Below are positions 8,431-64,000 of a stretch of DNA of 64,000 nt, in pieces (the stretch's first letter is position 1; the number at the start of each line of letters is the position of its first letter). Source of the stretch: an uncultured Actinomycetes bacterium (GTDB taxonomy: Bacteria > Actinomycetota > Thermoleophilia > Gaiellales > JAICJC01); NCBI GenBank assembly GCA_963695025.1, contig CAVOFQ010000003.1, positions 1,680,336-1,744,335 on the forward strand, in the 5' to 3' direction. Under the pieces are notes generated by a model. The model ran no database searches, was not told the DNA's origin, and worked only from the letters and a program-made list of their open reading frames with translations. A program made the translations under genes and the position numbers.

Positions 8431-8449
8431 GCCGGCAGCTTCCCTCGAA

Positions 8450-8522
8450 TGGAGCTAGTCGGGCTCGAACCGACGACCTCCACGCTGCCAGCGTGGCGCT
8501 CTCCCAGCTGAGCTATAGCCCC
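8450..8522 (-). tRNA. tRNA-Ala (anticodon GGC)
   Basis: Reverse complement GGGGCTATAGCTCAGCTGGGAGAGCGCCACGCTGGCAGCGTGGAGGTCGTCGGTTCGAGCCCGACTAGCTCCA folds as a cloverleaf. G3:U70 pair present. Anticodon loop is CTGGCAG. Confidence 0.9.
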
Positions 8523-9846: not shown

Positions 9847-9866
9847 TCCATATCGGCGCGATCAGA

Positions 9867-11976
<2,110 letters not shown>

Positions 11977-38054: not shown

Positions 38055-38086
38055 GGCCGGCGCGTCTACCAGTTCCGCCACACCCG
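38005..38086 (-). tRNA. tRNA-Leu (anticodon TAG)
   Basis: Reverse complement GCGGGTGTGGCGGAACTGGTAGACGCGCCGGCCTTAGGAGCCGGTGGCCTTGGCCGTGGAGGTTCGAGTCCTCTCGCCCGCA. 7-bp acceptor stem, long variable arm, anticodon loop CTTAGGA. Confidence 0.88.
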
Positions 38087-38114
38087 CGCGTGGGCGAAGT
38101 ATCCTACGACCACG

Positions 38115-38189
38115 CGGTGGCCGTAGCTCAGCTGGTGGTAGCCCCTGGTTGTGGTCCAGGAGGTCGTGGGTTCAAGTCCCACCGGTCAC
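38115..38189 (+). tRNA. tRNA-His (anticodon GTG) with encoded G-1
   Basis: GGTGGCCGTAGCTCAGCTGGTGGTAGCCCCTGGTTGTGGTCCAGGAGGTCGTGGGTTCAAGTCCCACCGGTCACC-C. Anticodon loop TTGTGGT. The extra 5' G pairs with C73. Confidence 0.88.
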
Positions 38190-38199
38190 CCTTTTCACT

Positions 38200-38273
38200 T
38201 GCGCCCGTAGCTCAGGGGATAGAGCAGCAGACTTCGAATCTGCCGGTCGTCCGTTCGAATCGGACCGGGCGCG
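38200..38273 (+). tRNA. tRNA-Arg (anticodon TCG); integration target of the downstream element
   Basis: GCGCCCGTAGCTCAGGGGATAGAGCAGCAGACTTCGAATCTGCCGGTCGTCCGTTCGAATCGGACCGGGCGCG. Anticodon loop CTTCGAA. Confidence 0.9.
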
Positions 38274-38276
38274 TCG
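38230..38276 (+). repeat. attL-type direct repeat (3' part of tRNA-Arg plus 3 nt)
   Basis: 47 nt, GACTTCGAATCTGCCGGTCGTCCGTTCGAATCGGACCGGGCGCGTCG, identical to 46742..46788. Weaker similarity continues for about 20 nt (AACCnGGCGGTTTnCGG). Confidence 0.9.
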
Positions 38277-42143: not shown

Positions 42144-42174
42144 CGTCGCGACGCCCTCCCGGAAAGGAGAAGCC

Positions 42175-42454
42175 ATGTACCTCGGCATCTACGAGATTGA
42201 CGGTGACCCAAACGAGCTGCTCGCCGCCTACGATCGGTTGATCGCGATGATGCCCGAGGGCCAGGTTGTGTTTCACGCCTTGCGCCATCCGTGAGAACGG
42301 CATGACCATCTACGACGCCTGCCCAACTAAGGAGGTGTTCGAGCAGTTCTCGACCTCCCCGGAGTTTCGAGGCGCAACCGAGGCTGCAGGCCTCCCCTGG
42401 CCCAGCCGGATCGAGGGACTGCAGCTTCACGCCGTACGCGCCAAAGGTGTCTAA
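42175..42454 (+). pseudogene. small (approx. 92 aa) protein, frameshifted near 42280
   Basis: ATG 42175 after GGAAAGGAGAAG: MYLGIYEIDGDPNELLAAYDRLIAMMPEGQVVFHA, then a stop. The +1 frame (track ORF 42266..42454) continues CAIRENGMTIYDACPTKEVFEQFSTSPEFRGATEAAGLPWPSRIEGLQLHAV. An extra T at 42280/42281 explains the shift. Confidence 0.6.
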
Positions 42455-46997: not shown

Positions 46998-48429
46998 ATG
47001 ACCGCTGCCCGGAGACGGCGAGTCGCGGCCGTGGCGCTCATGGTTGGGTTGTCGGCAGGGTGTGTCGGAGGGTCGACGGGGACCGAATCGACGATGCGCG
47101 GGACTCGCACGGAGGCGGCGATGACGAGCCCCGCGGGGATCCACAGGATCCGGCATGTGATCATCATCACGCAAGAGAACCGTTCGTTTGACTCCTACTT
47201 CGGCACCTACCCGGGCGCTGACGGGATCCCGATGCGCAACGGGCGACCGGCGGTGTGCATTCCCGATCCGCTCCGTGGTCGGTGCCAGCGTCCATACCAC
47301 GACCGGGCGCTGGTAAACGGCGGAGGGCCCGCACGGGCCGAGATCAGCTGTGAGGGATATCGGTGGTGGTCGGATGAAGGGGTTCCTGCGCCAGGCTGAA
47401 CAGGGCCGGCCAGGCTGCCTGCGCTCGTTTGGGCCGCTCAACCCGCTCTGCAGCCTGTCGCGGCTGCATCCCGACGTGATGGGCTATCACACCGCCGCGG
47501 AGATCCCCAACTACTGGGCATATGCACGCCGCTTCGTGCTGCAAGACCACATGTTCTCCCCGAACCTGGGCTGGAGCCTCCCCGCCCACCTGTACGGAGT
47601 ATCGGCGTGGTCGGCCACGTGCAAGAACCGCTCGCCCATGAGTTGCACCACTGCCCTCGGGATCCGGCGGGGCGGCAGGTCGGCGTTCACCGCGCTGCCG
47701 AGTACGCCATTCCGCTGGACGGACCTCACCTACGTACTCCACCGGGCGCATGTCAGCTGGCGCTACTACGTCCACGCCGGCCGCCTGCCCGACTGCGCCT
47801 CCGGCGCCCAGAAATGCCACCTCCCCCGACTGTCCGCCAAGACACCCGGAATCTGGAACCCTCTGCCGAGGTTCACGACCGTCCGCAAAGACCACCAATT
47901 GGGGGACATCCAGGGTGTACGCCGATTCTTCACCGCCGCTCGCAGGGGCGCCCTCCCTGCCGTTGCATGGATCGTCCCCGACGAGAAGCACAGCGAGCAC
48001 CCACCCGCAAACATCGCCGTCGGCCAAGCATGGGTAACCCACATCATCAACGCCGTCATGCGAAGCTCCGACTGGAACTCCACCGCCATCTTCCTCACCT
48101 GGGACGACTGGGGCGGCTTCTACGATCACGTTCGCCCACCCATCGTCGACCGCTACGGCTACGGACTGCGCGTCCCCGGCCTTGTCATCAGCCCCTATGC
48201 CCGCCAGGGCTACGTCGACCATCAAACCCTCAGCTTCGACGCCTACCTCAAATTCATCGAAGACGACTTCCTCCACGGCCAACGCCTCAACCCCAGAACC
48301 GACGGCCGACCCGACTCCCGACCCACCATCCGCGAAAACGCTCCCATCCTCGGCAACCTCACCCACGACTTCAACTTCCACCAACCCCCCCAACCGCCCT
48401 TCATCCTCCCACAGTACCCACACATCTAA
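46998..48429 (+). pseudogene. phosphoesterase-family (PLC/AcpA-like, PF04185-type) lipoprotein, frameshifted near 47325
   Basis: ATG 46998: MTAARRRRVAAVALMVGLSAGC (lipobox), then IRHVIIITQENRSFDSYFGTYPGADGIP (track ORF 46932..47399). The sense continues in track ORF 47350..48429 ([21 protein letters not shown]...[28 protein letters not shown]...[11 protein letters not shown]...[13 protein letters not shown]). Confidence 0.75.
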
Positions 48430-49769: not shown

Positions 49770-50378
49770 ATGCCGGGCCGATTCGAAGAGCTGATGGAGA
49801 GGTTGCGCGAGCTGCGGATTCGACGCCGGGGGCGGACCTCCCGGCCTCACGGGCTGGCGCACCGCCTTGGCGATCCGTTCGAGCGTCTGCGCGAGAGCGG
49901 GCGCTTCTCCGGCCTGCGGCACCGCGTGCGGCCGTGGCAGGCCGTTCCGGCGCTGGTCGCGGCGATCGCGCTGATCGTCGGCGGGTTCTGGCTGGGCGGC
50001 GCCATCGGCGGCCATGCAAGCGCAGCGACGCTCGTCCGCACCCTGACGGGCAAGGTGCTCACGAAGAACGGGATCCGCTACGTGAAGACGCCCGCCACGA
50101 CGGTGAAGGTCAACGGCAAGACGGTCCAGATCCCGGCCCGCACGGTCGCGCTGGCCGCAGACACCGTCATCTCCGGCACGACGGTCGCTGTCCCAATCAA
50201 TAGGACCGTCCCGGTGACGATCTTGACGACGGTCAATCACACGACGACCACGACGGTCGTCCAGACGCTCACCTTGACGGGGCCGACAACGACCGTTCAG
50301 GGGCCAACGCAGACGGTGACCGACACCATCACCATCACGCTGCCGGGGACGACCGTCACGCTGCCCGCGACGAGCTGA
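49770..50378 (+). CDS. single-pass membrane protein with Thr/Val-rich extracytoplasmic region, hypothetical
   Basis: 202 aa. Charged N-terminus, TM helix AVPALVAAIALIVGGFWLGGAIGG, then TTVKVNGKTVQIP...TTTTTVVQTLTLTGPTTTVQGPTQTVTDTITITLPGTTVTLPATS. Confidence 0.6.
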   Translation: MPGRFEELMERLRELRIRRRGRTSRPHGLAHRLGDPFERLRESGRFSGLRHRVRPWQAVPALVAAIALIVGGFWLGGAIGGHASAATLVRTLTGKVLTKNGIRYVKTPATTVKVNGKTVQIPARTVALAADTVISGTTVAVPINRTVPVTILTTVNHTTTTTVVQTLTLTGPTTTVQGPTQTVTDTITITLPGTTVTLPATS

Positions 50379-50621
50379 GGCCACTTCGTCGTGTCCGGCT
50401 CGGCGCCGCGCGCCGATCAACGGGGGATCACAGGCGGCCCATTCGGGGGATTGGCTTTCCCGGGCTGTGTCCGAATTTGTGAGTAGTGAGCGCGGCCGCC
50501 GGGGGGACGGCGTCGCGCCGAAACCTTCCTCGGAGGCACGGACGTGGCGCACCTCTCCGTCGAGCACTCGAACCGAATCGTTGCCTTGGCCGTCACGAGA
50601 GGACGACGCACTCGCGGGTCG

Positions 50622-51888
50622 ATGGCGGGTCAGGTGTTGCCGCTGGTGGTCGTGTTCATGTTCACGCTTCTGATCTTTCGCCGGCTTGGTGATCGACCTG
50701 GGCAATGCCTATCGGGTGCAGCAGGCGCTGCAGGCCTCGGCGGACGCCTCGGCCGCCGCTGGAGCCGGCCAGTTGACCCTGACATACCCGCCGCAGGTCG
50801 CGACGGCCACGTCGCAGGCGCAGAAGTACGGGTCGCAGTCGGGCGGCCAGAACCCGATCACCGGCGTCCCCGCCGGCAACGTCACCCAGACGGTCACCGT
50901 CACATGTGCGCCTCAGGCCGGCTACAACTGCAACTCGGGGTACGCCAACACGGTCACGGTCAACGAGACGGCCAGCGTGCCCACCTACTCTGCTCAAGCT
51001 GCTCGGGTTCAGCACCATCAGCCTCAACGCCCATGCGCAGGCCTGTTCACCGTGCGGTGGGGTGCCGCTGGACGTGATGATCGTGCTTGACCGCACGGGG
51101 TCGATGGCCGACAACAACAAGCTCAGCCAGGCGAAGGCGGGCATCACCGCGTTCATGAAGACCATGGACCCCACGCTTGACAACGTCGGGCTGGCCGTCC
51201 TCCCGCCGGCACCGAGCGTGGCCGCGCCCTGTGTCGATGTCGACCCGTACTTCAACGACCGTAAACGCCGAGGGCCAGTACGACGGCAGCGGGGGCACCT
51301 ACAGCCTCCCCAACGCCGCATACACACTGGTGCCGCTGTCGAACACCTATGCGTCGAGCGTCGGCAACCTCAACAACGGATCGCCCCTGATATCGACCAT
51401 CAACTGCGTCCAGGCCGGCGGGGGCACGGCCTACGCCGAGGCAATCGACGCAGCATACGCCGAACTGCAAAAGGACGGCCGCCCCAAGACGCAGAAGGTG
51501 ATCGTGTTCCTCTCCGACGGCGCGGCCAACGACGCCCCCATCTCGCTGCCGGCCACCTCGCCGTATCGAACGAACCCCTGCGGCCAAGGCGTCACCAGCG
51601 CCGGGATCGCCAAGGCCGCCAAGGTACTCGTGTACTCGATCGCCTATACCGCCAACGGAGACAACTGCTACGCCGCGGTGGGCGCGAACGTGGGCGGCAA
51701 GATCGTCACCACCTACGACGGAACCCTCGAGTCGCCGGCCATCGCCGCACAGCCAGGCCCTCCAGAGCATCGCCAGCACCGGCAACGGCACCTACTTCTA
51801 CGACCTCCCCAATCCCACGTCGCTGACCGGCATCTTCCAGCAAATCGCGGCAGACATCACCGGCGGCACCGCACGCATCGTCCAATAG
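50622..51888 (+). pseudogene. TadG-like N-terminal domain + von Willebrand A domain protein, four successive +1 frame disruptions
   Basis: MAGQVLPLVVVFMFTLLIF (frame 0). Shift near 50678: AGLVIDLGNAYRVQQALQASADASAAAGAG...NETASVPTY (frame 1). Shift near 50990: LLKLLGFSTISLNAHAQACSPCGGVPLDVMIVLDRTGSMAD (MIDAS)...DPYFND (frame 2). Shift near 51260: VNAEGQYDGSGG...GGGTAYAEAID...KVIVFLSDGAAND...TLESPAIAA (frame 0). Shift near 51750: SQALQSIASTGNGTYFYDLPNPTSLTGIFQQIAADITGGTARIVQ* (frame 1). Confidence 0.75.
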
Positions 51889-53086
51889 TCAGCACCCCGT
51901 AGCGTTCCCGGACCGCCACCCTCCTCCTTCGCGGGCGGGCCGGACCACTCGGGGGCGACCTTCGTGCTGTCGCTCGTGCTCTTCCCGACGTGATGGGCGT
52001 GGCCATCCTCCGCTATCGCCTGTACGACATGCGCCCGTCGCCGAGCGAAAGACCGCGCCCAGAACGGCGATCCCACCGAGGGTAGAGCAACGCGAGTACG
52101 GCGACCAGGCAGGTGTACACCAGGGGGTTGCGGATCACGACGTCTTGCGGCCCTCAAATCACGACGCGTGAGCGCCCGCCGCCGCGAGCTCCAGATGATC
52201 GTGGATTGCGCCCGCGACGAGATCGCGGCAGGCGCTGCTGTGCCCGTTCGCCAGCTCGAGGGCGGGTGTGAACACGGCACGGCGGGCGACTCTGCGATGG
52301 AGCTGAAGCGTCGCGGCGATGGCGCCGTGCATGCGCACGGGATCGCCCTCGGTCGCGCCCCGGACGATCCGGGCGACCAGAGCGGACGGAGTGAATTCGA
52401 TCTCGGGTGGTGAGGTCACTCCCGTCCAGTCTGGCGGCAATCGCCGCCGGAGAATCTGGGAATTGCGGTAACCCGGCCCACCAATCGTGGTATCTCCACT
52501 CGCCAGGATGCGCCGCGCACTCGAAGTCGCACAATCGCGCCGACGTGGCATGCGTCCTCACGAACGGAGGGTCGTGTGTCGGCGCCGGACGTCCAGCACA
52601 AACCAGGTCGGGCCGCTCGCGCGCCATCCAGAGAGCCCGTCGGTGCCGGCCATCGTGACCTCGACGCGGTCGCCGGCCCCGGTCTGCGATCCTACCGTCA
52701 CCCCTGCATACGGCCCCTGGGATCAGCCGACGGCGGGAACCCTGCCCCACGCGGCGGTGACCGCGATGTCGGCCATCGCCTGCGAGCGCTCGCGCGCATC
52801 CTCCGGAGTGTGCACCCGCACCGAGTGGGGCGTGTCGCCCATCGGCGAGACGACCTCGCCGTAGAGCCCGGCGGCAGCACTGCGAGCGACATCCTCGGAC
52901 GATCCCGCCGCGACCGTCACCCACCGGTTCGGGCGGAAGATGTTGAAGCGCGCCTGGGCGAACACCACATCGTCAGAGGCATCCATATCGGGGCTCACCG
53001 TAGCGACGAACCCCCGTGCTGTCGACCCCCTTTACAAACCTCTCCAACAAAATTCTCAACTCACATGGCACACGTACACTGGTTCC

Positions 53087-54121
53087 ATGTGGAGATGGGT
53101 GTTGCCGGTCGCGGTGGCCGCCGCGCTATTGATCGGATTCTTGGCGAGCCGCAACGGCCCGACCAGTCACGTCGGCGCGCACGCACCTCCCACGACCACC
53201 ACGACGCCCACGGCGCCGGGCCCGCATCTGGACGCGACCTGCGGCAGCCTGACCGGGACGGCGACCGTTCGCCACGTCGTCTGGATCTGGATGGGCGGCC
53301 AGTCCTACAAGCACATCATCGGCAAGGTACGGGAGGCGCCGTACATCAACCAGCTGGCGGGCCAGTGCGGCCTTGCGAGCGCCTACAGCACGATCACCCA
53401 CCCCGCGATCGCAAACGACGTCGGCGTCCTGGCCGGGGATTCCCACGGCCTCGTCCACAACGCCTGCTCGCCATGCATCGTCCCCGGCGCAAGCCTGCTC
53501 ACACAGGTGCCGTCGTGGCGGGCATTCATCGGCGGGATGCCGACGCCGTGCCGCAAGCTCGCCGACGAACGCGATACTCGCGCCTCTCCAACCCGCCGAT
53601 CGTACCTGACCGCTCCCCGGCTGTCCCTCGCTTCGACCTGCCTCTGGGCACACCGACCGGCTGGCCGGCTGGCCCCGCTCCTGACCGCGAACACCATGCC
53701 GGCGTTCACGATGATCGTCCCCGACGGCTGTCACGACACCGGCTTCAACAAGCACTGCGGCGGAGTGAAGAAGCGGGGCGCGTTCATCGCCCGCGGCGAC
53801 ACATGGCTGCGCACCTGGATCCCGGTGCTCACCTCATCGCTCGCCTACCGCTCGGGCTCGATGGTGATCTTCATCACCTGGAACCAGGGCACGCCGGCCA
53901 AGCCGCTCGACATCGCCTGCACCACCGGGACCCCCAGGAACGCGTGCCGGGTGCCGCTGCTGGTCATCTCGCCGTACGTGAAGGCCGGCATCAACGTGAC
54001 GACCCGGTTCAGCCACTACAGCCTGCTTCGGGCGACCGAGAAGCTGCTCGGCATCAAGACCCAGCTGGGCAACGCCGGGCGACCGGCGGCGGGCGATTTG
54101 GTGCAGGCGTTCGGCCTGTGA
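53087..54121 (+). CDS. second phosphoesterase-family (PF04185-like) exported protein; an internal approx. 35-codon stretch appears out of frame
   Basis: Part of track ORF 52940..54121, starting at ATG 53087 (MWRWVLPVAVAAALLIGFLASRNG). VRHVVWIWMGGQSYKHIIG...APYINQLAGQCGLA...MPAFTMIVPDGCHDTG...GDTWLRTWIP...MVIFITWNQG. Between about 53568 and 53670 another frame reads RYSRLSNPPIV...RFDLPLGTPTG, which fits family expectations better than the ORF frame. Confidence 0.6.
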   Translation: MWRWVLPVAVAAALLIGFLASRNGPTSHVGAHAPPTTTTTPTAPGPHLDATCGSLTGTATVRHVVWIWMGGQSYKHIIGKVREAPYINQLAGQCGLASAYSTITHPAIANDVGVLAGDSHGLVHNACSPCIVPGASLLTQVPSWRAFIGGMPTPCRKLADERDTRASPTRRSYLTAPRLSLASTCLWAHRPAGRLAPLLTANTMPAFTMIVPDGCHDTGFNKHCGGVKKRGAFIARGDTWLRTWIPVLTSSLAYRSGSMVIFITWNQGTPAKPLDIACTTGTPRNACRVPLLVISPYVKAGINVTTRFSHYSLLRATEKLLGIKTQLGNAGRPAAGDLVQAFGL

Positions 54122-55376
54122 GCCGGCGAGGGCTGGCAGCCGCCGCCGCGGCGCTGCTCGTCGCCGCCGGATGCGCCGGTGGCGGTGGCCAGAGCGGCGC
54201 ACCACGACAGGGCCGCCGCCTCCCCCGCGCCGGCCGTTCCCACCCCCGCACGGCACCGGCCTGCGCAAGCCGTGGGTCACCACCTGCGGCAGCCAGTTCG
54301 TCGACCAGAATGGCAAGCCGGTGCTCCTGCGCGGCGTCAACATGTCGGTCGGCCAGGCCACGCTCGCCCCCGCCGCGGCGGCCCTCGGCGTGAACTTCGT
54401 TCGCATCCACGTCGGCTGGGATTCGATCGAGCCCCAGCCGCCGTTGCACGGCCGCTACCGGTGGGACACCAATGTCCTCGACCCAGCTCGACCAGGAGGT
54501 CCAGGCGCTCCAGCGCCTGCACGTGAACGTCCTGATCGACTACCACCAGTTCCACTGGTCGCCCTACTTCGCCCAGGCGACATGCAAGGCGGGCAAGACC
54601 GTGTGCCGTGCCAGCGGCGTGCCGGCCTGGTTCTACTCCGGCGGCCGCTTCGCCGCCACGAAGAGCGGCGTGTCGCAGAGCCGAGGCGGCGTTCTGGAGC
54701 AGCCGAGTCGTCACTCTCGCAGGGCTACTACGCCGCATTCGTGAGCATGATGGCGGCCCGCTACGCGCGCTACCCGAACGTCGTCGGATACGAGCTCTTC
54801 AACGAGCCCCACCCCGGCCGGCTGGGCGACACGACCGGTGCGACCGACACGATGCTGCGTTGGCAGGCGGGCATCCGCGCCGCCATCCGCAAGGTCGATC
54901 CGTCCAGGACCGTGTTCATCATGTGCCGCGGCGGCGGCGAGGGCGTCGGCACCGCCAGCCTGGCGCCGTTCGGATCGCTCACGCACCTGGCCCTCGACTG
55001 GCACGACTACTTCAACGGCCTCTCGGGCGGCCTCGACGCGGCCGGGGACAACTGGGTGCCGTCATGGACGGCCACGCACAACCAGACCACCGCGAGCTAC
55101 ACCGGCAGCGAGCAGGCCCAGGCGCGCGTCCTCCAGGTGCCGCTCGAGCGTACGCGCACGTGGGGCATCCCGCTCCTCGTCGGCGAGTGGGGCATCCACA
55201 GCGGCACCCCCGGAGCCGCGGTGTACCAGACGCAGATGCTCGATCTCTTCGCCAAGGACAAGGTCAGCTGGACGCGCTGGGTGCTGACGGGCGGCGGCTT
55301 CGGCCTGCTGTCGACGAACGGCGCGCCCACCGCCGAGGCCGACCAGATCAAGGCCGCGCTGGCCGTCAGCCCCTGA
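54118..55376 (+). pseudogene. glycoside hydrolase family 5 (cellulase-like) lipoprotein, at least four frame disruptions
   Basis: GTG 54118 overlaps the upstream stop (GTGA): VSRRGLAAAAAALLVAAGC (lipobox). Shift near 54197 to ...CGSQFVDQNGKPVLLRGVNM...GVNFVRIHVGWDSIEP. Shift near 54478 to QLDQEVQALQRLHVNVLIDYHQFHWSPYF...GVPAWFY. Shift near 54683 to AEAAFWSS. Shift near 54700 to ...YYAAFVSMMAARYARYPNVVGYELFNEPHPG...LLVGEWGIHSG. Confidence 0.7.
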
Positions 55377-55472: not shown

Positions 55473-57059
55473 TCACCCGTGCGTCGCGGCCGCGGCCCTG
55501 CCGCGCCGCCGCCGGCGCAGCGAGCCCCCCAGAAGCTCCAGCTCGACCCGGTCGCGGAACTTCCACAGGAGCCATGCGTAGCCGGCCGTGCCGACGACGA
55601 GGCAGACGATGAGCGCCGGCACTGTCGTGCCCACGGTGACCCGAAGCGCAAGTCCGAGCACGCCGTAGCAGAGCAGCGCGCTGCCGCTTGCGACCGGGAA
55701 GCCGCGGCCGAACGGGTGCACCTTCAGGAAGGCGCGCACCTCGGCCAGAGGGGCGACGTTGTTGATGACGATGCTCCCGGCCCATGCCACGGCCGCCCCG
55801 GCGATCCCGAAATGCGGGATCAGGAGCAGGCTCAGGCCGACGTTCACCGTCAGCGCCACGATCACGTTGAAGAGGTTCCAGAAGCTGCGCCCGCCCATCA
55901 GGAGCACCATGTCCACGGGCCCGATGCCCGTCGCGACCAGCATCGTGACCGCCAGGATCTCGAGCGACGACGTCCCGGAGACGTACTGGGGCTTGAACAC
56001 GCGCAGCAGCAGCGGGGCGAAGATCGCGAGGCCCAGGTACATCGGCCAGGCCATGAGCACGAGCCAGGCGGTCGCCACCTGGTAGACGTCCATCGCCCGC
56101 TTCCGGGCGCCGCTTGCCAGCAGCTCGGAGAGCTTGGGCCCGATCACCTGGATGATGGCCATGTTGACCACGCTGCCCGCGACGAGGTACCGCGTCGAGG
56201 CGGTGTAGATCGATGCGTGGGCGGTGTCCATCAGCGAGCCCACCATCAGCGTCCCCACCCAGAGCGTTGTCACCTGGAAGACGCCGGTCATCCCCCGCGG
56301 CGCCGTGAACACCCAGAACTCGCGCGCCAGCTCGCGCAACGGCGTCCCCGGCTGGGTCGCCTTCTCGCGCCGCTCGGTGCGGCGCACCAGATGGCCGAGC
56401 CAGAGCAGCGCGACGGCGAACGAGATCCCGATCGGGACGCCCCACGCGACCGCGACGGCGAAGCTGCCGCCGCCGGCCAGCACGGCGACCGCCACCGCGA
56501 GGGTCTGCACCGCCGCCTTGCCGATGCGATCGACGAGCGCGTTGGGGAGCATCGTCCCGAAGCCACGGGTCGCGGCAATGGCCACCGTGTAGGCCGACGA
56601 CAGCGGCACGAACACGGCCAGCACGCGGATGTAGGTGGCGACGGCGTCTGCCGAGGCCTGACGGTGGTTCGTGAAGATCTCGGCCAGAGGGCCGGCGAGG
56701 GCGAAGGAGATCGCCGCGAGCACCACTCCGCCGACGAACGACGGGACGAGGCCGACGCTCAGGCTGCGGCGCACGTCGGCCACCCGGCCGGCGACGCGGT
56801 AGCGCGGGATCATCCGGGTGAGGCCGGTGTCGGCTCCGAGCTCGGCCGTGTTGGACAGGATCAGAAACAGCGCCACCGCCTCGAAGAAGGCGCCCGAGGC
56901 GCTGCGGGTGAGCGCGCGCGTCACCACCACCACCATGGCGAACTGGAGCAGGCCGTTTGCGAGCGCGCCGATGAAGTTGAGCGAGCCGCCGCGGGCGACC
57001 ATGCGCAGGTCGTCGGTGCGCTCCTGGCCGGCCGTGGCCGGCGACTCCACCGCCGTCAC
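55473..57059 (-). CDS. polysaccharide biosynthesis protein / oligosaccharide flippase (Wzx, MOP superfamily)
   Basis: Track ORF 55473..57341. I start at GTG 57059, which overlaps the stop of the sulfotransferase gene (GTGA). About 12-14 hydrophobic segments. GGSLNFIGALANGLLQFAMVVVVTRAL. Confidence 0.8.
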   Translation of the reverse strand: MTAVESPATAGQERTDDLRMVARGGSLNFIGALANGLLQFAMVVVVTRALTRSASGAFFEAVALFLILSNTAELGADTGLTRMIPRYRVAGRVADVRRSLSVGLVPSFVGGVVLAAISFALAGPLAEIFTNHRQASADAVATYIRVLAVFVPLSSAYTVAIAATRGFGTMLPNALVDRIGKAAVQTLAVAVAVLAGGGSFAVAVAWGVPIGISFAVALLWLGHLVRRTERREKATQPGTPLRELAREFWVFTAPRGMTGVFQVTTLWVGTLMVGSLMDTAHASIYTASTRYLVAGSVVNMAIIQVIGPKLSELLASGARKRAMDVYQVATAWLVLMAWPMYLGLAIFAPLLLRVFKPQYVSGTSSLEILAVTMLVATGIGPVDMVLLMGGRSFWNLFNVIVALTVNVGLSLLLIPHFGIAGAAVAWAGSIVINNVAPLAEVRAFLKVHPFGRGFPVASGSALLCYGVLGLALRVTVGTTVPALIVCLVVGTAGYAWLLWKFRDRVELELLGGSLRRRRRGRAAAATHG

Positions 57060-57979
57060 GGCTCGACCTGCTCGTGCTCGGCCTCCGGCCAGCCCATCCT
57101 CATGCCCACGAACGCCTCCAGCCTCCGGTTGGGCGCGGCGAAGTGCGCCCGCAGCCGTGCCCGCGTCTCGTCCGCCATGCCCGTGGCGCGTCGGGCATTG
57201 TATGCCCGGAACTCCGGCGGGCTCTCGGGATCGGGCAGGCCGAGGAAGCGCAGGACCTCGGCATAGCCGGCCTGGGGATCGGCGAAGAACCGCTCGTAAC
57301 AGATCACCAGGGTGCGCTCGGCCGGGAAGTGCTCGCGCCATGCCGCGAGCTGGTCGGCGTACTCGCCGCGCTTGACGTAGGCGTGGTGCTGGTAGGCGCG
57401 GCTGTCGTAGGCGGGATCGGCCAGCATCCGCTCGCGCTCACCCTCGATGCGCGCCGGCTCGAGGTCGAGCGCGGCCTCGAAGGAGGCGGCGTCCTCGAAC
57501 CCGCGGGCGTACTCCTGCTGGTAGTGGGAGTAGGCCCGCTCGACCGGGTCGCGGAGCATCACGATCACGCGCGCGCCAGGCACCGCCGCCGCCGCCCGCG
57601 CCGGCCCGTGGGGGTGGAAGAGGTAGTAGGGGCTGCCCTCGCCCGTGACCGCCGGCGGGCCGGCGGAGCGCTCGCGCCGCCGCCGCTCCGCCTCCGTCGG
57701 GAAGTGTGCCCGGTACCACCGCAGGCTGCGGTCGGCGTGCTTGTCGAAGTAGTGCACGCCCTTGCTCGGCACGGCGGGCATCACCTGGGGATGGGCGGCC
57801 AGGTAGTTGTACAGCGACGTCGTACCGCTGCGCTGGGCGCCGATGATGAGGAAGTCCGGCAGCGGCCGGTGCGTGGCGGTGAGCATGCGCCAGCCGATCA
57901 GGGTCTCGCGCGCAGCGGTGATCACCGGTGCGGGCAGCCGCGAGTAGTTGTCGTTGGCCGCGCCGCGCTCGCGGGGCAT
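57056..57979 (-). CDS. sulfotransferase family protein 1
   Basis: Part of track ORF 57056..58516, starting at ATG 57979 (ATGA overlap). PDFLIIGAQRSGTTSLYNYL is the 5'-PSB PAPS motif and VIVMLRDPVERAYSHY is the 3'-PB motif. Confidence 0.85.
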   Translation of the reverse strand: MPRERGAANDNYSRLPAPVITAARETLIGWRMLTATHRPLPDFLIIGAQRSGTTSLYNYLAAHPQVMPAVPSKGVHYFDKHADRSLRWYRAHFPTEAERRRRERSAGPPAVTGEGSPYYLFHPHGPARAAAAVPGARVIVMLRDPVERAYSHYQQEYARGFEDAASFEAALDLEPARIEGERERMLADPAYDSRAYQHHAYVKRGEYADQLAAWREHFPAERTLVICYERFFADPQAGYAEVLRFLGLPDPESPPEFRAYNARRATGMADETRARLRAHFAAPNRRLEAFVGMRMGWPEAEHEQVEP

Positions 57980-58785
57980 CAGCCGGCCAGCTCCAGCGGC
58001 GTCAGGAGCACCGGCTGCTTGAGGCTGTAGCCGAACCGGTTCACCCGGTCTTCGAGCGTCTCCACGGCGGTGGCGATGTCGGTACCGGTCCCGGGGGCGC
58101 GCCGGGCCAGCGTCCAGCGGCGGAAATAGCCGTCGTTGATGCCGCCCCTCACCTCGAGGCCGCTCGGCAGCGGCTCGACACCGGCAAACCGGAACACTTC
58201 GCCAAGGCGGCGGTCGGGGTCGAAGACGAACTCCTCGTAGCGCATCACCAGGAGTTTCTCGATGTGCGACGCGTCGTCCATCAGGAGCTCGTGGCAGCGC
58301 AGCCAGTGCTCGATCAGCGACGTGTAGGACATCCGCTTCCACGTCCGCCGTGCGCGCCCGAACTGGCGCGTCGCGCCGGCCACAGCGATCGGGTGGCGGA
58401 TCAGGACGACCATGCACGAGCCGGGGAAGAGCGCCTGCAGGAACCGCGTCCGGATCAGGTTGGGCGGCGACTTCTCGACCAGCACCGGCCGCGAGGCGTC
58501 CCAGTGGCGGCCCCACTCCTCGAACAGCCGCCGGCGGCTCTCGTCGTTCACGAGCGGGGAGTCCTCGGTCAGATGGGCGCTGGGGTCGAACCCGAACCGG
58601 CCCGGCCCGCCGTGCTCGTTCGCAGGCCGGTACACGGTCTGCAGGTGCTGGCCCTCATCCTCGGTCGCACCGGTCTCGGAGAAGCCGCTCACCTGCGGAT
58701 GCTCGGCCAGACAGCGGCCGAGCAGGGTCGTGCCACTGCGGTGCAGACCGCCGATGAACACGAACGTGTGCTCATGCCAATCCAT
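57979..58785 (-). CDS. sulfotransferase family protein 2
   Basis: 268 aa. FVFIGGLHRSGTTLLGRCL (5'-PSB-like) and VVLIRHPIAV. Confidence 0.75.
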   Translation of the reverse strand: MDWHEHTFVFIGGLHRSGTTLLGRCLAEHPQVSGFSETGATEDEGQHLQTVYRPANEHGGPGRFGFDPSAHLTEDSPLVNDESRRRLFEEWGRHWDASRPVLVEKSPPNLIRTRFLQALFPGSCMVVLIRHPIAVAGATRQFGRARRTWKRMSYTSLIEHWLRCHELLMDDASHIEKLLVMRYEEFVFDPDRRLGEVFRFAGVEPLPSGLEVRGGINDGYFRRWTLARRAPGTGTDIATAVETLEDRVNRFGYSLKQPVLLTPLELAG

Positions 58786-58789
58786 CTGT

Positions 58790-59029
58790 TCAAGCCGGGA
58801 CGAGCGCCCGTCGCCGAGGTCGGGCAGGCGACGCCTCGCCCACCGGTTCCGGTGCCTCTGCCGTCATCATCGCACGGTAGGTGATCGCAGCGGCCACCAG
58901 CATGATCGGCAGGCGCTCGGTGACGTCGTAGTAGGGCACCTGCAGCATGGCGACCAGCAGCCAGCCCCCCGGCAGCACCCAGCCCGAGGGCAGGTTCTGG
59001 TTGATCCGCGCGGCGGGGGCTCTAAGCAT
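58790..59029 (-). CDS. small hydrophobic hypothetical protein
   Basis: 79-aa track ORF. 8-nt overlap with the upstream sulfotransferase stop. G/C-rich third positions. WVLPGGWLLVAMLQ...LPIMLVAAAITY. Confidence 0.35.
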   Translation of the reverse strand: MLRAPAARINQNLPSGWVLPGGWLLVAMLQVPYYDVTERLPIMLVAAAITYRAMMTAEAPEPVGEASPARPRRRALVPA

Positions 59030-59966
59030 GGTGCCGGAGATAGCCGTAGCGAAGCAGCAGCGGCCAGGTCACCAGCACCACGAGGGAGCGTGTCTTTCGG
59101 GCCATGCCGGTGCGCCAGGCCTCGTCGGGCCGCACCTGCTGGCGGCCGTGGGCAAAGCGCATCGGGTTTCCGCGCACGCTGTGCTGCCCCGAGACGTGCA
59201 CCGAGTCGGCCCCGATCGCCGAGAGGTCGTGCCGGCCCGGCTCGCCCATCGCCGCGAACATCCGCTCGAGCTCGCCGCGCGGGTCGGCTGCGAGCGACTC
59301 GTAGCGCATCCGCACCGTCGGCGCACCGACGCGCCGCAGGAACTCGAAGGCCAGGTTGCACTGCATCCAGCGCACACCCGCCGAGACCGGCGAGAACTCC
59401 TGGAAGTAGGCCTCGCCGGCGATCACCTCGGGGCGCGCGACCCGCTTGGCCCACGAGTACACGACGCCGCGGCTGTCGCGCACCAGGTGCACCACGCGCA
59501 GGGCGATCCCCGAGCCCGCCGCAGCGCGCAGGAAGTACGCGTACGGCGGGTTCTTGGTCGAATCGACCACGACCTGCGCTCCCGACACGGTCAGGATGCC
59601 GCGATAGAGCTGCGCGGTCAGGTCGGCGTAGCGGCGCACGGCCTGTGCGTGGCCGGACGCGAGCCGGCCCAGCGCCAGAAGCGGGATCCTGCGGTGGGCG
59701 AGGACCGTGGACTCGAGCCGCAGGATCTCGTCGGTGTCCACCTTGTCCCAGCCGCCGAAGGCCGCATCCCCGACCGCCGCCCAGAATGGGCAGTCGGCGA
59801 ACTGCAGGCCGCATCCGCACAGCTCGTTCGCGCCGGGCCCGGCCTGCCACACGTAGCGCAGCTCACCGACCGACACGAACCCCGGCACCTCGCCCAGAAC
59901 GTGCGCGAGCAGGGTCGAACCGCTCCGCCCCCAGCCGCCGATGTAGAGCACCGGAACGTCGGTCAT
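59022..59966 (-). CDS. sulfotransferase family protein 3
   Basis: 314 aa. VLYIGGWGRSGSTLLAHVL (5'-PSB-like) and VVHLVRDSRGVVYSW (3'-PB-like). ATGA overlap with the upstream gene. Confidence 0.8.
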   Translation of the reverse strand: MTDVPVLYIGGWGRSGSTLLAHVLGEVPGFVSVGELRYVWQAGPGANELCGCGLQFADCPFWAAVGDAAFGGWDKVDTDEILRLESTVLAHRRIPLLALGRLASGHAQAVRRYADLTAQLYRGILTVSGAQVVVDSTKNPPYAYFLRAAAGSGIALRVVHLVRDSRGVVYSWAKRVARPEVIAGEAYFQEFSPVSAGVRWMQCNLAFEFLRRVGAPTVRMRYESLAADPRGELERMFAAMGEPGRHDLSAIGADSVHVSGQHSVRGNPMRFAHGRQQVRPDEAWRTGMARKTRSLVVLVTWPLLLRYGYLRHHA

Positions 59967-60583
59967 GCACGCCGCCGCGAGAACGGCGCCGACCGCGCGA
60001 CGCCCCCGTGCGAGCCGTTCGTGTGGGAGACGAGCTCGTCAACCAGCTGCTCGAACATGGCCACCGCGTTCGCAGGCCCGGCGCCGGCGGGCGGCAGCTT
60101 CGCCTCGCTGCCGTCGAGGCCGAGAGCCGCGTCAAGGCACGTGCGCAGCTCCTCCTCGGACTGGGCCAGGACGATCGCGCCCTCTCCCGCGATGCGCTCG
60201 GTGAACGAGCACTGATGGTCGTCCACGTGCTCGCCGTAGCGCTTGCGCCGGGGCACGACGATCGGCCGCTTGCCGAGCGTCGCGGCCAGCATGATCGTCC
60301 CCGGGCCGCCGTGGCACACCACGACCGCGGCCTCGCGCACCATCGCCTCCATCTCGGCATGGCCGAGGTACTGGCGGTGTTCGGCAAGACGCGGCACGGC
60401 CGACGTGCCGGTCTGCACGAAGCAACGGGCGACGTCGCAGCCGCCCGCCTCGAGCCAGGCGTCCATCCAGCGGGACAGGCGGTCGAAGGGGTGGTAGTCG
60501 GTACCGACGGAGGCGAAGACGAGTGGCAGAGGGTCGCTCAGAACAGGCCGCCGATCACGCGTGCCCCGGGGTAGAACCGGCAC
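59963..60583 (-). CDS. PssE/Cps14G-type glycosyltransferase subunit (Alg13-like, Glyco_tran_28_C); start uncertain
   Basis: Part of track ORF 59963..60766. LPLVFASVGTDYHPFDRLSRWMD...VVCHGGPGTIMLAATLGKRPIVVPRRKRYGEHVDDHQ. GTG 60583 is the nearest canonical start. Confidence 0.75.
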   Translation of the reverse strand: MPVLPRGTRDRRPVLSDPLPLVFASVGTDYHPFDRLSRWMDAWLEAGGCDVARCFVQTGTSAVPRLAEHRQYLGHAEMEAMVREAAVVVCHGGPGTIMLAATLGKRPIVVPRRKRYGEHVDDHQCSFTERIAGEGAIVLAQSEEELRTCLDAALGLDGSEAKLPPAGAGPANAVAMFEQLVDELVSHTNGSHGGVARSAPFSRRRA

Positions 60584-60987
60584 TGCTCCTCCCACTGCAC
60601 CAGAAAGAGGCTCGAGAACGGCCGGCAGAGACGGCCGGTCAGCGTGGGTGAGTCGATCCGGTCGTACACCTCGAGGTACACCGTGGGGATACGCAGGAGA
60701 CGGGCGACGATGAAGAACGGGAACGCCACGGCGGCACCGTCCGAGACGACCACGTCGGGCCGCCACCGTGGCAGCATGCGAACGGCCAGAAGAAAGTTCC
60801 GCACCGCGTTACGGATGTTGCGCGTGGTCGGGTAGTACGCCCACGTGACGCGTTCGTCCTGCAGGAGCGACCGGCTGTCGGGCAGGTCGAACGTGACCCA
60901 CCTGCGGTCGTGCTTCGTCCACCACGGCTTGAGTTGGTGCAGCTGGATCAGGTGGCCGCCCGATGAGCAGACCAGCAGGACTCTCAC
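60538..60987 (-). CDS. PssD/Cps14F-type glycosyltransferase subunit (Alg14-like)
   Basis: Part of track ORF 60538..61128, starting at GTG 60987 (GTGA overlap with the kinase stop). VRVLLVCSSGGHLIQLHQL...VVSDGAAVAFPFFIVARLLRIPTVYLEVYDRIDSPTLTGRL. Confidence 0.8.
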   Translation of the reverse strand: MRVLLVCSSGGHLIQLHQLKPWWTKHDRRWVTFDLPDSRSLLQDERVTWAYYPTTRNIRNAVRNFLLAVRMLPRWRPDVVVSDGAAVAFPFFIVARLLRIPTVYLEVYDRIDSPTLTGRLCRPFSSLFLVQWEEQCRFYPGARVIGGLF

Positions 60988-62635
60988 AGCAGTTCGGTTT
61001 CTCGTGTCTGTCCAGGCTGCGGGACCGAGTCTGGCTGGACGTGGGACGTGCCCACGTAGCCGCCGTACTCCTGCACCTCGTCGGCGGCGCCGCCGACGAA
61101 CACGAACCCAAGCCGCGGTGCGGCGCACGCCTCGAGGGCGCGGCCGAGTGCGACGAGCTGCGGACGGCTGGCGAGCCGTGCCCGTGCGACCACGACCACC
61201 GCGTCCACCTTCGTGCCGAGCACCATGGCGTCGGTCACCGGCAGCATCGGCGGCGCGTCCACCAGGACGACGTCGGCGCGCGTGCGCAGCTCACGGAGGA
61301 GCTCGGTCATCGCCCGGCTGTCGAGCAGCTCCGCAGCATCGCCCGGGATCGGGCCGGCCGGCAGCACCTCGAGCAGGCCGGCACCGCCGCCGGAGCCGTT
61401 CGAGCCGGACTCGACGGCCTGCTCGCGGCTGACATCGACGATCGTCAGGGCATCGCCGAGCTGGCTGTGGCCCGAAAGGATGTCGCTCACACCCATGCGG
61501 TCGTCCAGTCCGAAGAATCCACCCAGGGCCGGCCGGCGCATATTGGCGTCGACCACGACCACGTGCTGGCCGGCGCGCGTCAGCGCAACCGCCAGGTTCG
61601 CGACGGTGGTCGAGATGCCCTCGTCATCCGAGGCGCTGGTGAACATGATCACCTTCATGCCGCGCCGCAGCGTCGAGGACAGGTTCAGCTTGAGGATGCG
61701 GAAGGCCTCGGCCGTCGGCATCTGCGCTCCGCCCTGCGGAGACATCAGCACCACGGCCTGATCTCGGAGCGCACGCGGCCGCGACGGGATGCTGGCCAGG
61801 AGCGGCAGGCGCAGGCGCCGGCCGACCTCGTCCACCGTGCGGATGCGGGTGTCGAGCAGATCCTGCAGGAAGGCCAGGATCACGCCGAGGATCAGTCCGA
61901 GGACGAGCCCGATGGCGGCGTTGCGGCTGGTCTTGGGCTGCGTCTGGTTGGCCGACTGCGCGACGCGGGCGGTTCAGCTGGAGGCCCGAGTTCGTGATCT
62001 GAGCCACCTTCTTGGTGAGAATGCCGTTGTCGGTCGTGATCTGGTCCGTGAGCTGGTGCGCCTTGGCCGCCGTGAACGGCGGCGTCGTGTGATTGCTCAC
62101 GGCTTCGTTGTAGGGGATGAGCTCGGTCGTCGCGTTCGCGATCTGTGTCCGCAGGGCGACGATCGAGTTGTGGAGCTGCGTCTGGTCAATCCTGTTCGAG
62201 TATGCGCCGATGATCGTTGCCCACGCGTTGGCGAGCTGCTGGGCGACCACCGGGCTCGGGTCGGTGACGGTGAAGTCGATCGCATCGACGGCGGCGTCGG
62301 GCGTCACCGTCGTCTCGCCAGGAGCTGCGCCGGGGAGATGCCCGTGAGGTGGGACTGGGAGATGATCGACCTTCGCGCCCGGCGAGGGTCGCGAGCAGCG
62401 GAGCGTGCGTGCCCGACCACGTGTTGCCGCTCGGGTTCTTGGACGACGACGACGACGCCGACGACGTCGTGTTGACCAGCTGGGAGCTCGCCGAATACAG
62501 CTTCTGCTGGCGCTCCGAGAAGCCGAACGCGGCCGCCGTGACCATCACCGTGACCAGGAGCGCAATCCACTTGCGCCTCCACACCACACCGACGTAGTCG
62601 CTCAGCGAAACCGACTCATACCATCCGTTTTCCAC
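60984..62635 (-). pseudogene. polysaccharide co-polymerase / BY-tyrosine autokinase (Wzc-like), three frame disruptions
   Basis: GTG 62635 after AGAGGA: VENGWYESVSLSDYVGVVWRRKWIALLVTVMVTAAAFGFS...LLATLAG. Shift near 62375: SIISQSHLTGISPAQLL. Shift near 62320: TTVTPDAAVDAIDFTVTDPSPVVAQQLANAWATII...GLQLN. Shift near 61970: ARVAQSANQTQPKTSRNAAIGLVLGLILGVILAFLQDLLD..., followed by the kinase domain (Walker A-like FTSASDDEGISTT, VVVVDANMRRP, VLVDAPPMLPVTD). Confidence 0.75.
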
Positions 62636-62898
62636 TACTCGGTCCTCTCGGGTCGTCTGCGCTCGCGCGTTGTCGGCATGGCCAAGCCAGGTGCCGTTAC
62701 GAATAGGCTCCGCCCGGCGCGGGGACGCCGGCTGGAGGGAGGCTCTGGATCGTCCAGGTAACACCCGGCCTCCCACACCCATGGTACTCCCCAGCAGTTC
62801 GGCGTCAACCCTGCTCTCGGGCACTATTGGCACGCGATTGACAGGTTCTCGTTGCCTCCACGGGTACGGTGTTCGGCGTGAGGGATGCAGACGCCTGC

Positions 62899-64000
62899 AT
62901 GCGGGGTCTCGCGGCGACGGGCGAACGCGTCCACGCCGGGCCCGCTCCACCGCCGGCCTTTCGGCCGGTCGACCGCTATGTGGTGCTGCCGTCGCTGCGC
63001 CGGCCCGGCCTGCTCGTCCCGGTGACGTCGCGCCGGCCCGCGGCCGCAGCCGCACGTCAATACCTGCTCTTGCCAGGCGGCGCCGGCCGTTTCGCCACCG
63101 AGGCCGTCGCGATCGCGCTGCGCACGGGAGTGCCGCAGCGGCTGAGCCGAAGCCGGCTCGGCATCTGGGTTGCACCCGACGTGGCGGTCGCGGAACTGCC
63201 GGACCTCGTGCTGCGCCACCATCTCGCCGCCGTGCTCGGGGAGGCCGACGTCGAGCTGGCGGTGCGGGTCGGCGCCACCCGCCCGAACGGCAAGCCGGTG
63301 GTGCAGGTGGCCGAGCCGGGCGGGCGGGTGCTCGCATACGCGAAGGTGGGCTGGAACGACCTCACACGTCCGCTGGTCGCCGCCGAGGCTGAGGCGCTGC
63401 GGAGCATCGCCGCCCGGGCCGCGGCGCCGCGCACGTTCCGTGTGGCGCAGCTCCTGCATGCCGGCGAGTGGCAGGGCAACACGCTCACCGTTGTCGAGCC
63501 GCTGGTCGGCGGGGTGCCGGTGCGCTCGCCCGACCCGCCCCGAGACGCCACCCACGAGCTGGCGCTCGGCGGCGCCGTCGGCCGCGAGCCTCTTGGGCTG
63601 AGCGGCTGGTGGTACGACGCCCGGGCCCGGATCGAGGCCTCGGGCGCCGACCTCGGTCCTGCCGCCGACGCGATTGCGGCCGAGGCGGGCGACCTGATGC
63701 TCGGCTTCGGCCGCGGCCACGGCGACTGGACGCCCTGGAACATGCGCCATCTCGACGGGCGCCTCGTCGTGTGGGATTGGGAGCGCAGCCGCGAGGGCGT
63801 CCCGGTCGGCCTGGACGCGCTGCACTACGGCCTGCTTGTGGCGCTGAACGTGCGCAAGCTGGCGCCGCGGAATGCCGTGGCCGACACGCTCGCGCGCGCG
63901 CCCGCGTGGCTGGGCGACCTCGACCAGCCGCCCGAGGCCGCCCGGCTGATGCTGTGCCTCGAGCTGCTCGAGATGTCGCTGCGCTTCGCCGAGGCCCGCC
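62899..64000 (+). CDS. APH/ChoK-fold phosphotransferase-like protein (3' end beyond window)
   Basis: Absent from ORF track (no stop in the window). Hand translation from ATG 62899 (or GTG 62878): MRGLAATGERVHAGP...VLAYAKVGWNDLTRPLVAAEAEALRSI...FGRGHGDWTPWNMRHLDGRLVVWDWERS... HGDxxPWN plus a downstream DWE is the kinase-fold catalytic signature. Confidence 0.6.
   Translation, partial: MRGLAATGERVHAGPAPPPAFRPVDRYVVLPSLRRPGLLVPVTSRRPAAAAARQYLLLPGGAGRFATEAVAIALRTGVPQRLSRSRLGIWVAPDVAVAELPDLVLRHHLAAVLGEADVELAVRVGATRPNGKPVVQVAEPGGRVLAYAKVGWNDLTRPLVAAEAEALRSIAARAAAPRTFRVAQLLHAGEWQGNTLTVVEPLVGGVPVRSPDPPRDATHELALGGAVGREPLGLSGWWYDARARIEASGADLGPAADAIAAEAGDLMLGFGRGHGDWTPWNMRHLDGRLVVWDWERSREGVPVGLDALHYGLLVALNVRKLAPRNAVADTLARAPAWLGDLDQPPEAARLMLCLELLEMSLRFAEAR

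Follow-up and report, generated by a model that had tools for sequence, protein, structure and literature searches.

Among the described gene clusters for sulfated polysaccharides, which are rare in bacteria, the wps-1 cluster (wpsA-K) of Actinoplanes missouriensis is the closest to the locus reported here. One account holds sulfated polysaccharides to be exclusive to cyanobacteria among bacteria (PMC13390465); the literature also describes capsules of marine Vibrio and Cobetia that are sulfated. For actinomycetes, the case so far is the genetic hint given by wps-1, which encodes GT2 and GT26 glycosyltransferases, two sulfotransferases, a GH26 protein, a methyltransferase, a kinase-like protein, and the Wzx, Wzy, and polysaccharide co-polymerase (PCP) components of an export pathway (PMC13390465). 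Its product is predicted, not chemically shown, to be a sulfated exopolysaccharide, and the phenotype of the cluster, which concerns sporangium formation, depends on the kinase-like gene (PMC13390465). Sulfate has been verified for synechan of Synechocystis, whose xss cluster combines eight glycosyltransferases with two sulfotransferases and specifies an eight-sugar unit (PMC8205485). In Myxococcus xanthus, the pair EcpK-EpsV illustrates a bacterial tyrosine kinase (BY-kinase)-like pseudokinase that scaffolds its PCP (PMC12004946). Here, we analyze a 64,000-nucleotide (nt) stretch from an uncultured actinomycete of the order Gaiellales (assembly GCA_963695025.1, contig CAVOFQ010000003.1, positions 1,680,336 to 1,744,335 of the forward strand), referred to below as the window, and the polysaccharide locus at its right end. 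Judged by its gene-set description, wps-1 resembles this locus in being an actinomycete Wzx/Wzy/PCP system that has more than one sulfotransferase, drawn from different families, together with a glycoside hydrolase and a gene for a protein-kinase-like product.

An initial annotation of the window had proposed a Wzx/Wzy-type locus with three different sulfotransferases, and our analysis supports this, with a credible binding site for the sulfate donor 3'-phosphoadenosine 5'-phosphosulfate (PAPS) in each of the three. We read the region as one copy of a small Wzx/Wzy-type locus that is conserved among uncultured Gaiellales-like Actinomycetota and would build a densely sulfated surface polymer, polymerization probably having been lost in this particular copy, from which the polymerase gene has been deleted; we put the probability of this reading at about 0.6.

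Conservation and layout of the locus

Genes were called by Pfam profile matches above the gathering or curated cutoffs, and NCBIfam profiles were also used. An exact-sequence look-up of the second sulfotransferase (ST2) found no entry. Homologues of ST2 numbered 3,797, the named ones coming from Gaiellales, and a scan with one genome per species yielded 80 ST2 loci, 25 of which are syntenic with the window locus. These 25 species-level loci belong to genomes of uncultured Actinomycetes, Gaiellales, and Thermoleophilia and have a common gene order, in which a divergent kinase gene of the aminoglycoside phosphotransferase (APH) type is followed by genes for Wzc, PssD, PssE, ST3, Wzy, ST2, ST1, and Wzx. 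The identity of ST2 to the window protein ranges from 57 to 88% across them. A convergent GH5 gene adjoins wzx in nearly all 25 loci, and a phosphoesterase gene is present in many. The GH5 and phosphoesterase genes (52940 to 55376) are part of the conserved locus and had fallen outside the region assigned to it in the initial annotation.

The locus designated L084, on a 3.79-Mb contig, is fully intact and served as the reference. Its operon encodes Wzc (553 amino acids [aa]), PssD (149 aa), PssE (206 aa), ST3 (314 aa), Wzy (443 aa), ST2 (268 aa), ST1 (307 aa), and Wzx (528 aa), and its 418-aa GH5 protein is translationally coupled to the phosphoesterase. Measured against L084, the locus genes of the window have dN/dS values of 0.05 to 0.28, indicating purifying selection.

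The order of the minus-strand genes given in the initial annotation is borne out by Pfam matches above cutoff (Table 1), and the five gene junctions that it listed can all be seen directly in the sequence. These are GTGA at 60984/60987, ATGA at 59963/59966, an 8-nt overlap at 59022/59029, TGATG at 57979, and GTGA at 57056/57059.

Table 1. Features of the polysaccharide locus in the window
Feature	Position	Strand	Basis of assignment
Phosphoesterase, PF04185 family	52940..54121	+	Pfam, E 8.5e-12
GH5 glycanase, lipoprotein type	54118..55376	+	Pfam Cellulase, E 1.6e-21
Wzx-type flippase, 528 aa, intact	55473..57059	-	Pfam Polysacc_synt, 39.7 bits
ST1, 307 aa, intact	57056..57979	-	Pfam Sulfotransfer_1/_3, E ~8e-20
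ST2, 268 aa, intact	57979..58785	-	Pfam Sulfotransfer_3, E 1.2e-27
wzy remnant, 79 aa	58790..59029	-	Without Pfam match; DNA and protein comparison with relatives
ST3, 314 aa, intact	59022..59966	-	Pfam Sulfotransfer_3, 36.4 bits against a cutoff of 27
PssE/Cps14G/Alg13-like half, 206 aa	59963..60583	-	Pfam Glyco_tran_28_C, E 4.8e-12
PssD/Cps14F/Alg14-like half, 149 aa	60538..60987	-	Pfam Alg14; NCBIfam PssD
Wzc-like PCP-2, frame-shifted	60984..62635	-	Pfam Wzz and AAA_31 on separate open reading frames
Divergent intergenic region, presumed promoter region	62636..62898		Sequence position
APH-fold (eukaryotic-like) kinase	62899..64000 (last ~29 codons past the window end)	+	Fold model and family alignment

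Deletion of wzy

Between the ST3 and ST2 genes, the initial annotation had recorded a short hydrophobic open reading frame (ORF), and it had noted that no polymerase gene was in view. Relatives carry an intact Wzy_C gene of 443 to 446 aa at the equivalent position: the site of wzy lies between ST3 and ST2, and in the window the gene has been deleted. Comparison by blastn and tblastn resolved the 79-aa ORF into Wzy residues 1 to 23 fused in frame to the final 56 residues; it is thus a leftover of wzy and not a separate gene. The deletion removed 1,086 bp (362 codons), with its junction at 58960 and a 5-bp microhomology, GCTGG. The same junction was obtained against L001, L083, L084, and L085, and the window was otherwise aligned continuously. 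L085, a JGI soil-metagenome contig with 94 to 95% DNA identity to the window, keeps a complete 443-aa wzy, and the deletion is therefore recent. A search for a second copy of the deletion allele, in which a 24-nt junction probe was compared with JGI metagenome contigs, returned four matches, none of them similar to the window.

Intact Wzy_C genes were found at the ST3-ST2 position in 21 of the 25 relatives. The gene is also absent from L003 (a complete chromosome), L007, and L008, where differing remnants lie between ST3 and ST2 at approximately 9860 to 10000. When placed on a neighbor-joining tree of four concatenated proteins, the losses of wzy fall at no fewer than three places. In L003 and L008, all other genes of the locus are intact, wzc and the GH5 gene included. 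An NCBIfam scan of Wzy gave no match, favoring neither a polymerase nor a ligase.

Frame changes in wzc and the GH5 gene

In relatives of the window, Wzc is encoded by a single ORF of about 545 to 553 aa with two transmembrane (TM) segments. In the window, its domains are present (the Wzz N-terminal domain upstream and the P-loop domain at 60984 to 61883) and are split over three frames. Frame plots and segmentation by hidden Markov models (HMMs) placed the frame changes, all of them in the extracytoplasmic domain, near 62383 (+2 nt), 62318 (-1 nt), and 61970 (+1 nt), and tblastn with intact orthologues likewise matched three frames. Since the net change is +2, the reading frame is not restored.

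The GH5 gene of the window contains four 1-nt indels, near 54199, 54482, 54679, and 54699. Its product carries a lipoprotein-type signal with the lipobox LLVAAGC, and its start is joined to the phosphoesterase stop codon by a GTGA overlap at 54118. The phosphoesterase gene, which adjoins the GH5 gene in L001, L002, and L084, encodes a TM-like stretch at residues 50 to 68, an N-terminal membrane or signal segment. Both proteins are predicted from these features to be extracytoplasmic. A paralogue of the phosphoesterase is found in the window as well: the two PF04185 genes, at 47350 to 48429 and 52940 to 54121 (both +), lie 4.5 kb apart, but coupling to the GH5 gene and conservation as part of the locus are confined to the second.

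Frame changes were also observed at two other sites in the window. An amidase gene (40721 to 42241, +) is split, with Pfam positions 1 to 305 in one frame and positions 371 to 443 in the ORF 41835 to 42140, and the third copy of a set of TadE/G-like (Tad/von Willebrand factor A [vWA]) genes, at 49770 to 51900, extends over three or four reading frames.

Full-length, single-frame matches were obtained for over 35 kb of housekeeping sequence in the window and for the other genes of the locus, and the indels in wzc and the GH5 gene are not in long homopolymers. Random nanopore indels were considered as an explanation and, although conceivable, were not adopted, because the housekeeping genes of the same window are clean. 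The nonuniform pattern favors either real inactivation or consensus problems in a mixture of strains over random sequencing error. We regard real inactivation as somewhat more likely than not.

Three sulfotransferases

The three candidate proteins all pass the HMM cutoffs for sulfotransferases (22 to 27 bits), with scores of 72 bits for ST1, 98 bits for ST2, and 36.4 bits for ST3. The PAPS-loop motifs noted in the initial annotation, QRSGTTS, HRSGTTL, and GRSGSTL, are present, as are RDPVERAYS and RDSRGVVYS. The 5'-phosphosulfate-binding (5'-PSB) loop, xRSG[ST]T, is invariant in the ST2 and ST3 families and, in ST1, aligns to that of heparan sulfate 3-O-sulfotransferase 3 (3-OST-3). The 3'-phosphate-binding (3'-PB) motif, RxxxxxxxS, is clear in ST1 and ST3; ST2 reads RHPIAVAGAT, with Thr in place of Ser. 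The similarity of ST1, ST2, and ST3 to one another is limited to the level of these motifs.

Approximately 210 residues of ST1 align with heparan sulfate 3-O-sulfotransferase 3A1 (PDB 1t8t, E 2e-20) and with the sulfotransferase domain of NDST. In the alignment with 1t8t, the 5'-PSB loop, the position of the catalytic Glu (GEGSPYY versus MEKTPSY), and the 3'-PB motif RDPVERAYS are in register. ST1 differs from the heparan sulfate 3-OST and NDST enzymes in being bacterial, in its predicted cytoplasmic location, and in having Arg instead of Lys in the 5'-PSB loop. For ST2, the nearest solved relative is the tyrosylprotein sulfotransferase TPST2 (PDB, E 1.3e-8), and the motifs GLHRSGT, EDEGQHLQ, EKSPPN, and RHP are invariant in its family. 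A sequence search of the PDB with ST3 found no match. Its AlphaFold2 model, built from 31 homologues, has a predicted local distance difference test (pLDDT) score of 91.5, and the best Foldseek matches of this model are TPST2, the CurM and OLS sulfotransferase domains, and 3-OST-1. GRSGSTL and RDSRGxxxS are invariant in the ST3 family. A sulfotransferase fold is thus indicated for ST1 and ST2 by sequence matches to solved enzymes and for ST3 by the predicted model.

The ST3 family also has invariant cysteines, C50-x-C52 followed by C59 (residues 50 to 59, ELCGCGxxFxxCPFW). This motif may form a metal-binding or structural site; to our knowledge, it is not a general feature of sulfotransferases.

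No TM-like segments were detected in ST1, ST2, ST3, or the kinase, and the three sulfotransferases are therefore presumed to work inside the cell, with access to cytoplasmic PAPS. ST3 can be tied to the glycosyltransferase because natural fusions exist of a PssE-type Glyco_tran_28_C domain with an ST3-like sulfotransferase (protein P0343, encoded at L086 88 to 1602, and also P0342). The L086 fusion gene, in another Actinomycetota genome, adjoins two GT2 genes and a Wzy_C gene.

More distant ST2 homologues occur in other contexts in Solirubrobacterales, Phycisphaerae, cyanobacteria, and other groups, several of them with an ST3-like gene a few kilobases away. In seven other loci from Thermoleophilia and Solirubrobacterales (L026, L036, L038, L039, L042, L047, and L056), the ST2 homologue and an ST3-like gene are 2 to 6 kb apart, and L026 additionally has ST1-like and Wzx-like genes. 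These pairings suggest that the class Thermoleophilia has a broader range of glycan loci with several sulfotransferases.

Glycosyltransferase, flippase, and co-polymerase

The PssD/Alg14-like and PssE/Alg13-like subunits named in the initial annotation were confirmed as the products of adjacent genes that encode the two halves of a MurG-like glycosyltransferase. The PssD-like half passes the NCBIfam PssD model (117.1 bits against a cutoff of 110). The PssE-like half scores 64.8 bits with NCBIfam PssE, below the cutoff of 120, and 46.7 bits with Glyco_tran_28_C, for which the cutoff is 22. The two halves match WelK, a beta-1,4-glucuronosyltransferase, at residues 2 to 152 (PssD) and 167 to 303 (PssE, E 2e-23). 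By family membership, the PssDE/Cps14FG/Alg13/14 type of enzyme would add the second sugar to a lipid-diphosphate-linked monosaccharide. The Wzx-type flippase scores above the Polysacc_synt (PF01943) cutoff of 28.2 bits, has about 12 TM segments, gives a single full-length match to its relatives, and has a dN/dS of 0.15 against L084.

The first minus-strand gene had been described as encoding a Wzc-like co-polymerase and BY-kinase. Its Wzz and P-loop domains are present, but the BY-kinase label is not supported: the Walker A lysine is missing, and the gene is not a single ORF in the window. The Walker A motif of the window protein reads DEGIST, and the lysine-free pattern [ED]G[T/I/V]S-x-T is common to the window and every one of the 25 loci. 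Replacement of the lysine by Thr, Ile, or Val is thus clade-wide (window 61590 to 61650, -). Walker A' (VVVVDANMRRP) and Walker B (VVLVDAPPML) are kept, and the C-terminal tail has two tyrosines only (EYGGY). The intact orthologue L004 passes the BY-kinase model TIGR01007 with 112.6 bits (cutoff, 108). In P-loop NTPases, loss of the Walker A lysine predicts a lack of kinase activity, and the Wzc-like protein looks like a co-polymerase fused to a pseudokinase.

The divergent kinase and the locus boundary

The divergent gene at the end of the window had been described as encoding an APH-fold kinase, an assignment upheld by catalytic residues, a structural model, and Foldseek. Sequence searches of the window protein against Pfam (PF01636 included), NCBIfam, and the PDB gave no match, so the fold was settled by structure prediction and family alignment. 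The catalytic set K132, E163, HGD274-276, N281, and D293 is invariant in 35 homologues. The AlphaFold2 model (pLDDT 92) matches APH(3')-IIa, an actinobacterial glucosamine kinase, maltokinase, and FN3K with a Foldseek probability of 1.0 and a target TM-score of up to 0.6. The family is small, comprising 246 clusters among 5.8 billion proteins, and a few of its members carry PF01636. Its gene adjoins wzc in 24 of the 24 syntenic loci that reach that side. Phosphorylation of a sugar or glycan is a possible role for the protein, and regulation is another.

Flanks of 10 kb around the locus were inspected for extra genes in L001, L002, L083, L084, and the deep-branching loci L015 and L024. In L084, the gene for the APH-like kinase (396 aa) is followed by those for a 41-aa membrane peptide, a GAF-HisKA_3 kinase, and a LuxR-type regulator, the last two forming a two-component pair that is limited to the closer clade. 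The peptide, MSISIASLVSLAPIFGVVVLAVIAAFLLARGDDAARTRTGR, has a single TM segment and is conserved after the kinase gene (L084 11202 to 11327, just past the equivalent of the window end); it is kept even in deep-branching loci without the two-component pair. The initial annotation had presumed that the locus continues beyond 64000. In the relatives, the region past the kinase gene holds the 41-aa peptide and the two-component system and no further polysaccharide genes, and we therefore conclude that it does not. The statement that no priming transferase or PAPS genes are in view remains correct for the window and extends to the six flanks: a priming phosphoglycosyl transferase was not found in the scanned window ORFs or within 10 kb in these flanks, and PAPS-synthesis genes were likewise missing from the window and from the same 10-kb flanks.

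Predicted product and alternative explanations

The product of the locus is most likely a heavily sulfated surface sugar polymer, as judged from its gene content. In the pathway that we propose, an undecaprenyl-diphosphate-linked monosaccharide would be made by a priming enzyme encoded elsewhere, and PssDE would add a second sugar, possibly a uronic acid. The short unit would then be decorated by the three sulfotransferases on the cytoplasmic face of the membrane and flipped by Wzx, after which Wzy, together with the Wzc-like scaffold, would link such units into a surface polymer that is densely sulfated and resembles a glycosaminoglycan, and GH5 could trim or release it. The presence of one transferase and three sulfotransferases probably implies a short, densely sulfated saccharide unit. 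In the genome of the window, polymerization has probably been lost through the deletion of wzy and the frame-shifts in wzc and the GH5 gene, leaving it able to make at most single sulfated units. It is conceivable, though rather unlikely, that Gaiellales-like soil actinobacteria make do with Wzx/Wzy, a single glycosyltransferase, and three sulfotransferases as a minimal set, which would produce a glycosaminoglycan-like disaccharide repeat with up to three sulfates. The dead-kinase co-polymerase and the APH-fold kinase would in that case replace control by tyrosine phosphorylation, and the polymer would be switched off by repeated deletion of wzy.

Several points weigh against a sulfated polymer whose synthesis has decayed in this genome. 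For every member of the locus family, sulfation is predicted from the genes, and neither a priming transferase nor PAPS synthesis is found near the locus. The sugar identities are guesses from weak similarity to WelK/PssDE and to heparan sulfate sulfotransferases. The loss of wzy is not simply decay, since L003 and L008 keep wzc and the GH5 gene intact, and the frame-shifts could be metagenome consensus errors of the kind suspected in the related MFD assemblies L083, L007, and L017, which are full of split genes. These last two points also bear on the possibility that the whole locus works in this organism, in which case the indels of wzc and the GH5 gene would be assembly or consensus errors and polymerization would depend on a Wzy encoded elsewhere or not be needed. 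The many split genes of the sister assemblies (of the MFD... contig_N type) are in keeping with such errors, and L003 and L008, without wzy and with every other gene intact, point the same way; in the window itself, the remaining operon genes are intact and have low dN/dS. However, a clean, in-frame deletion of 1,086 bp with microhomology is not an error of the type that assemblers make, and the seven or eight indels, outside long homopolymers, are confined to accessory genes, whereas more than 35 kb of housekeeping sequence is clean. We regard a fully functional locus as unlikely, while giving it real weight.

Wzy_C (PF04932) is a domain shared with WaaL ligases and PglL-type O-oligosaccharyltransferases, which is a further point against a polymer. 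If the Wzy_C protein were a ligase or an O-oligosaccharyltransferase, the product could be a short sulfated oligosaccharide that is moved to lipid, cell wall, or protein, as would suit a locus with a single glycosyltransferase and a wzy gene that is repeatedly dispensable. A conserved PCP-2 co-polymerase makes sense for a polymer, however, as does a conserved GH5 glycanase outside the cytoplasm, and we consider the chance of an oligosaccharide product to be slim. Slimmer still is the chance that the sulfotransferases act on peptide tyrosine or on a small molecule and are merely colocated with the glycan genes. The nearest solved relatives of ST2 and ST3 are indeed tyrosylprotein and polyketide sulfotransferases, but the sulfotransferase genes are translationally chained between those for the glycosyltransferase, Wzy, and Wzx in an order that is invariant in 25 loci, PssE-ST3 fusion proteins exist, and ST1 is a clear carbohydrate-type sulfotransferase.

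Remainder of the window

The G+C content of the window is approximately 70%, and the remainder of it is core chromosome, with obg, rplU, an RNase E/G gene, rodA, a PBP2 gene, mreBC, uppP, ndk, valS, clpX, and tig. Genes for tRNA-Leu(TAG), tRNA-His(GTG), and tRNA-Arg(TCG) are clustered at 38006 to 38275, and tRNA-Ala(GGC) stands apart at 8449 to 8523. A stretch of low coding density at 42 to 47 kb was considered as an rRNA operon and rejected: Rfam identified four tRNAs only, and the stretch carries TadE/G-like paralogues. Three TadE/G-like proteins are encoded between 42626 and 51900 (+), a vWA domain being detected in the third only; the codon-position GC signal of this region is weak, and its G+C content is lower (0.63 to 0.67).

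Comparison with known systems

If the proposed function is correct, sulfated matrix polymers would extend to soil Gram-positive bacteria. Such polymers bind cations and hold water, and Gaiellales-like actinobacteria are very common in soil. With its flippase, polymerase, split transferase, and three sulfotransferases, the locus would also be a compact toolkit for the engineering of heparin-like or otherwise densely sulfated glycans. Lineages that have lost wzy and kept the other genes amount to a natural experiment on the role of each part. A literature search for work linking Gaiellales and sulfotransferases found none.

The split transferase resembles PssD/PssE of Rhizobium leguminosarum, Cps14F/G of Streptococcus pneumoniae, Alg14/Alg13, and WelK, in which the halves are fused; all are MurG-like and add a beta-1,4-linked second sugar. 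None of these systems is sulfated, and the window PssE falls below the family cutoff. The Wzc-like protein is like EcpK in having a P-loop domain without key catalytic residues and in working with a co-polymerase. EcpK is a separate protein, whereas in the window locus the predicted pseudokinase is fused to the PCP and Walker A', Walker B, and two C-terminal tyrosines are kept.

With synechan, the locus shares the Wzx/Wzy/PCP pathway, the presence of sulfotransferase genes within the cluster, and sulfation that is thought to take place on the lipid-linked unit before flipping. The xss cluster differs in having eight glycosyltransferases and two sulfotransferases rather than one and three, in belonging to a Gram-negative organism with an OPX protein, and in its regulation by XssQRS. 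The listed gene set of wps-1, like the window locus, is without a priming transferase. Unlike the window locus, wps-1 has GT2 and GT26 enzymes and no split PssD/PssE, two sulfotransferases and not three, and GH26 in place of GH5, and it additionally contains a methyltransferase and a DUF4262 gene. The window locus thus follows the same logic as wps-1 and synechan with other parts and features, namely the single split transferase, the three sulfotransferases, the PCP with a fused pseudokinase, the rare APH-fold kinase, GH5, and the recurrent loss of wzy.

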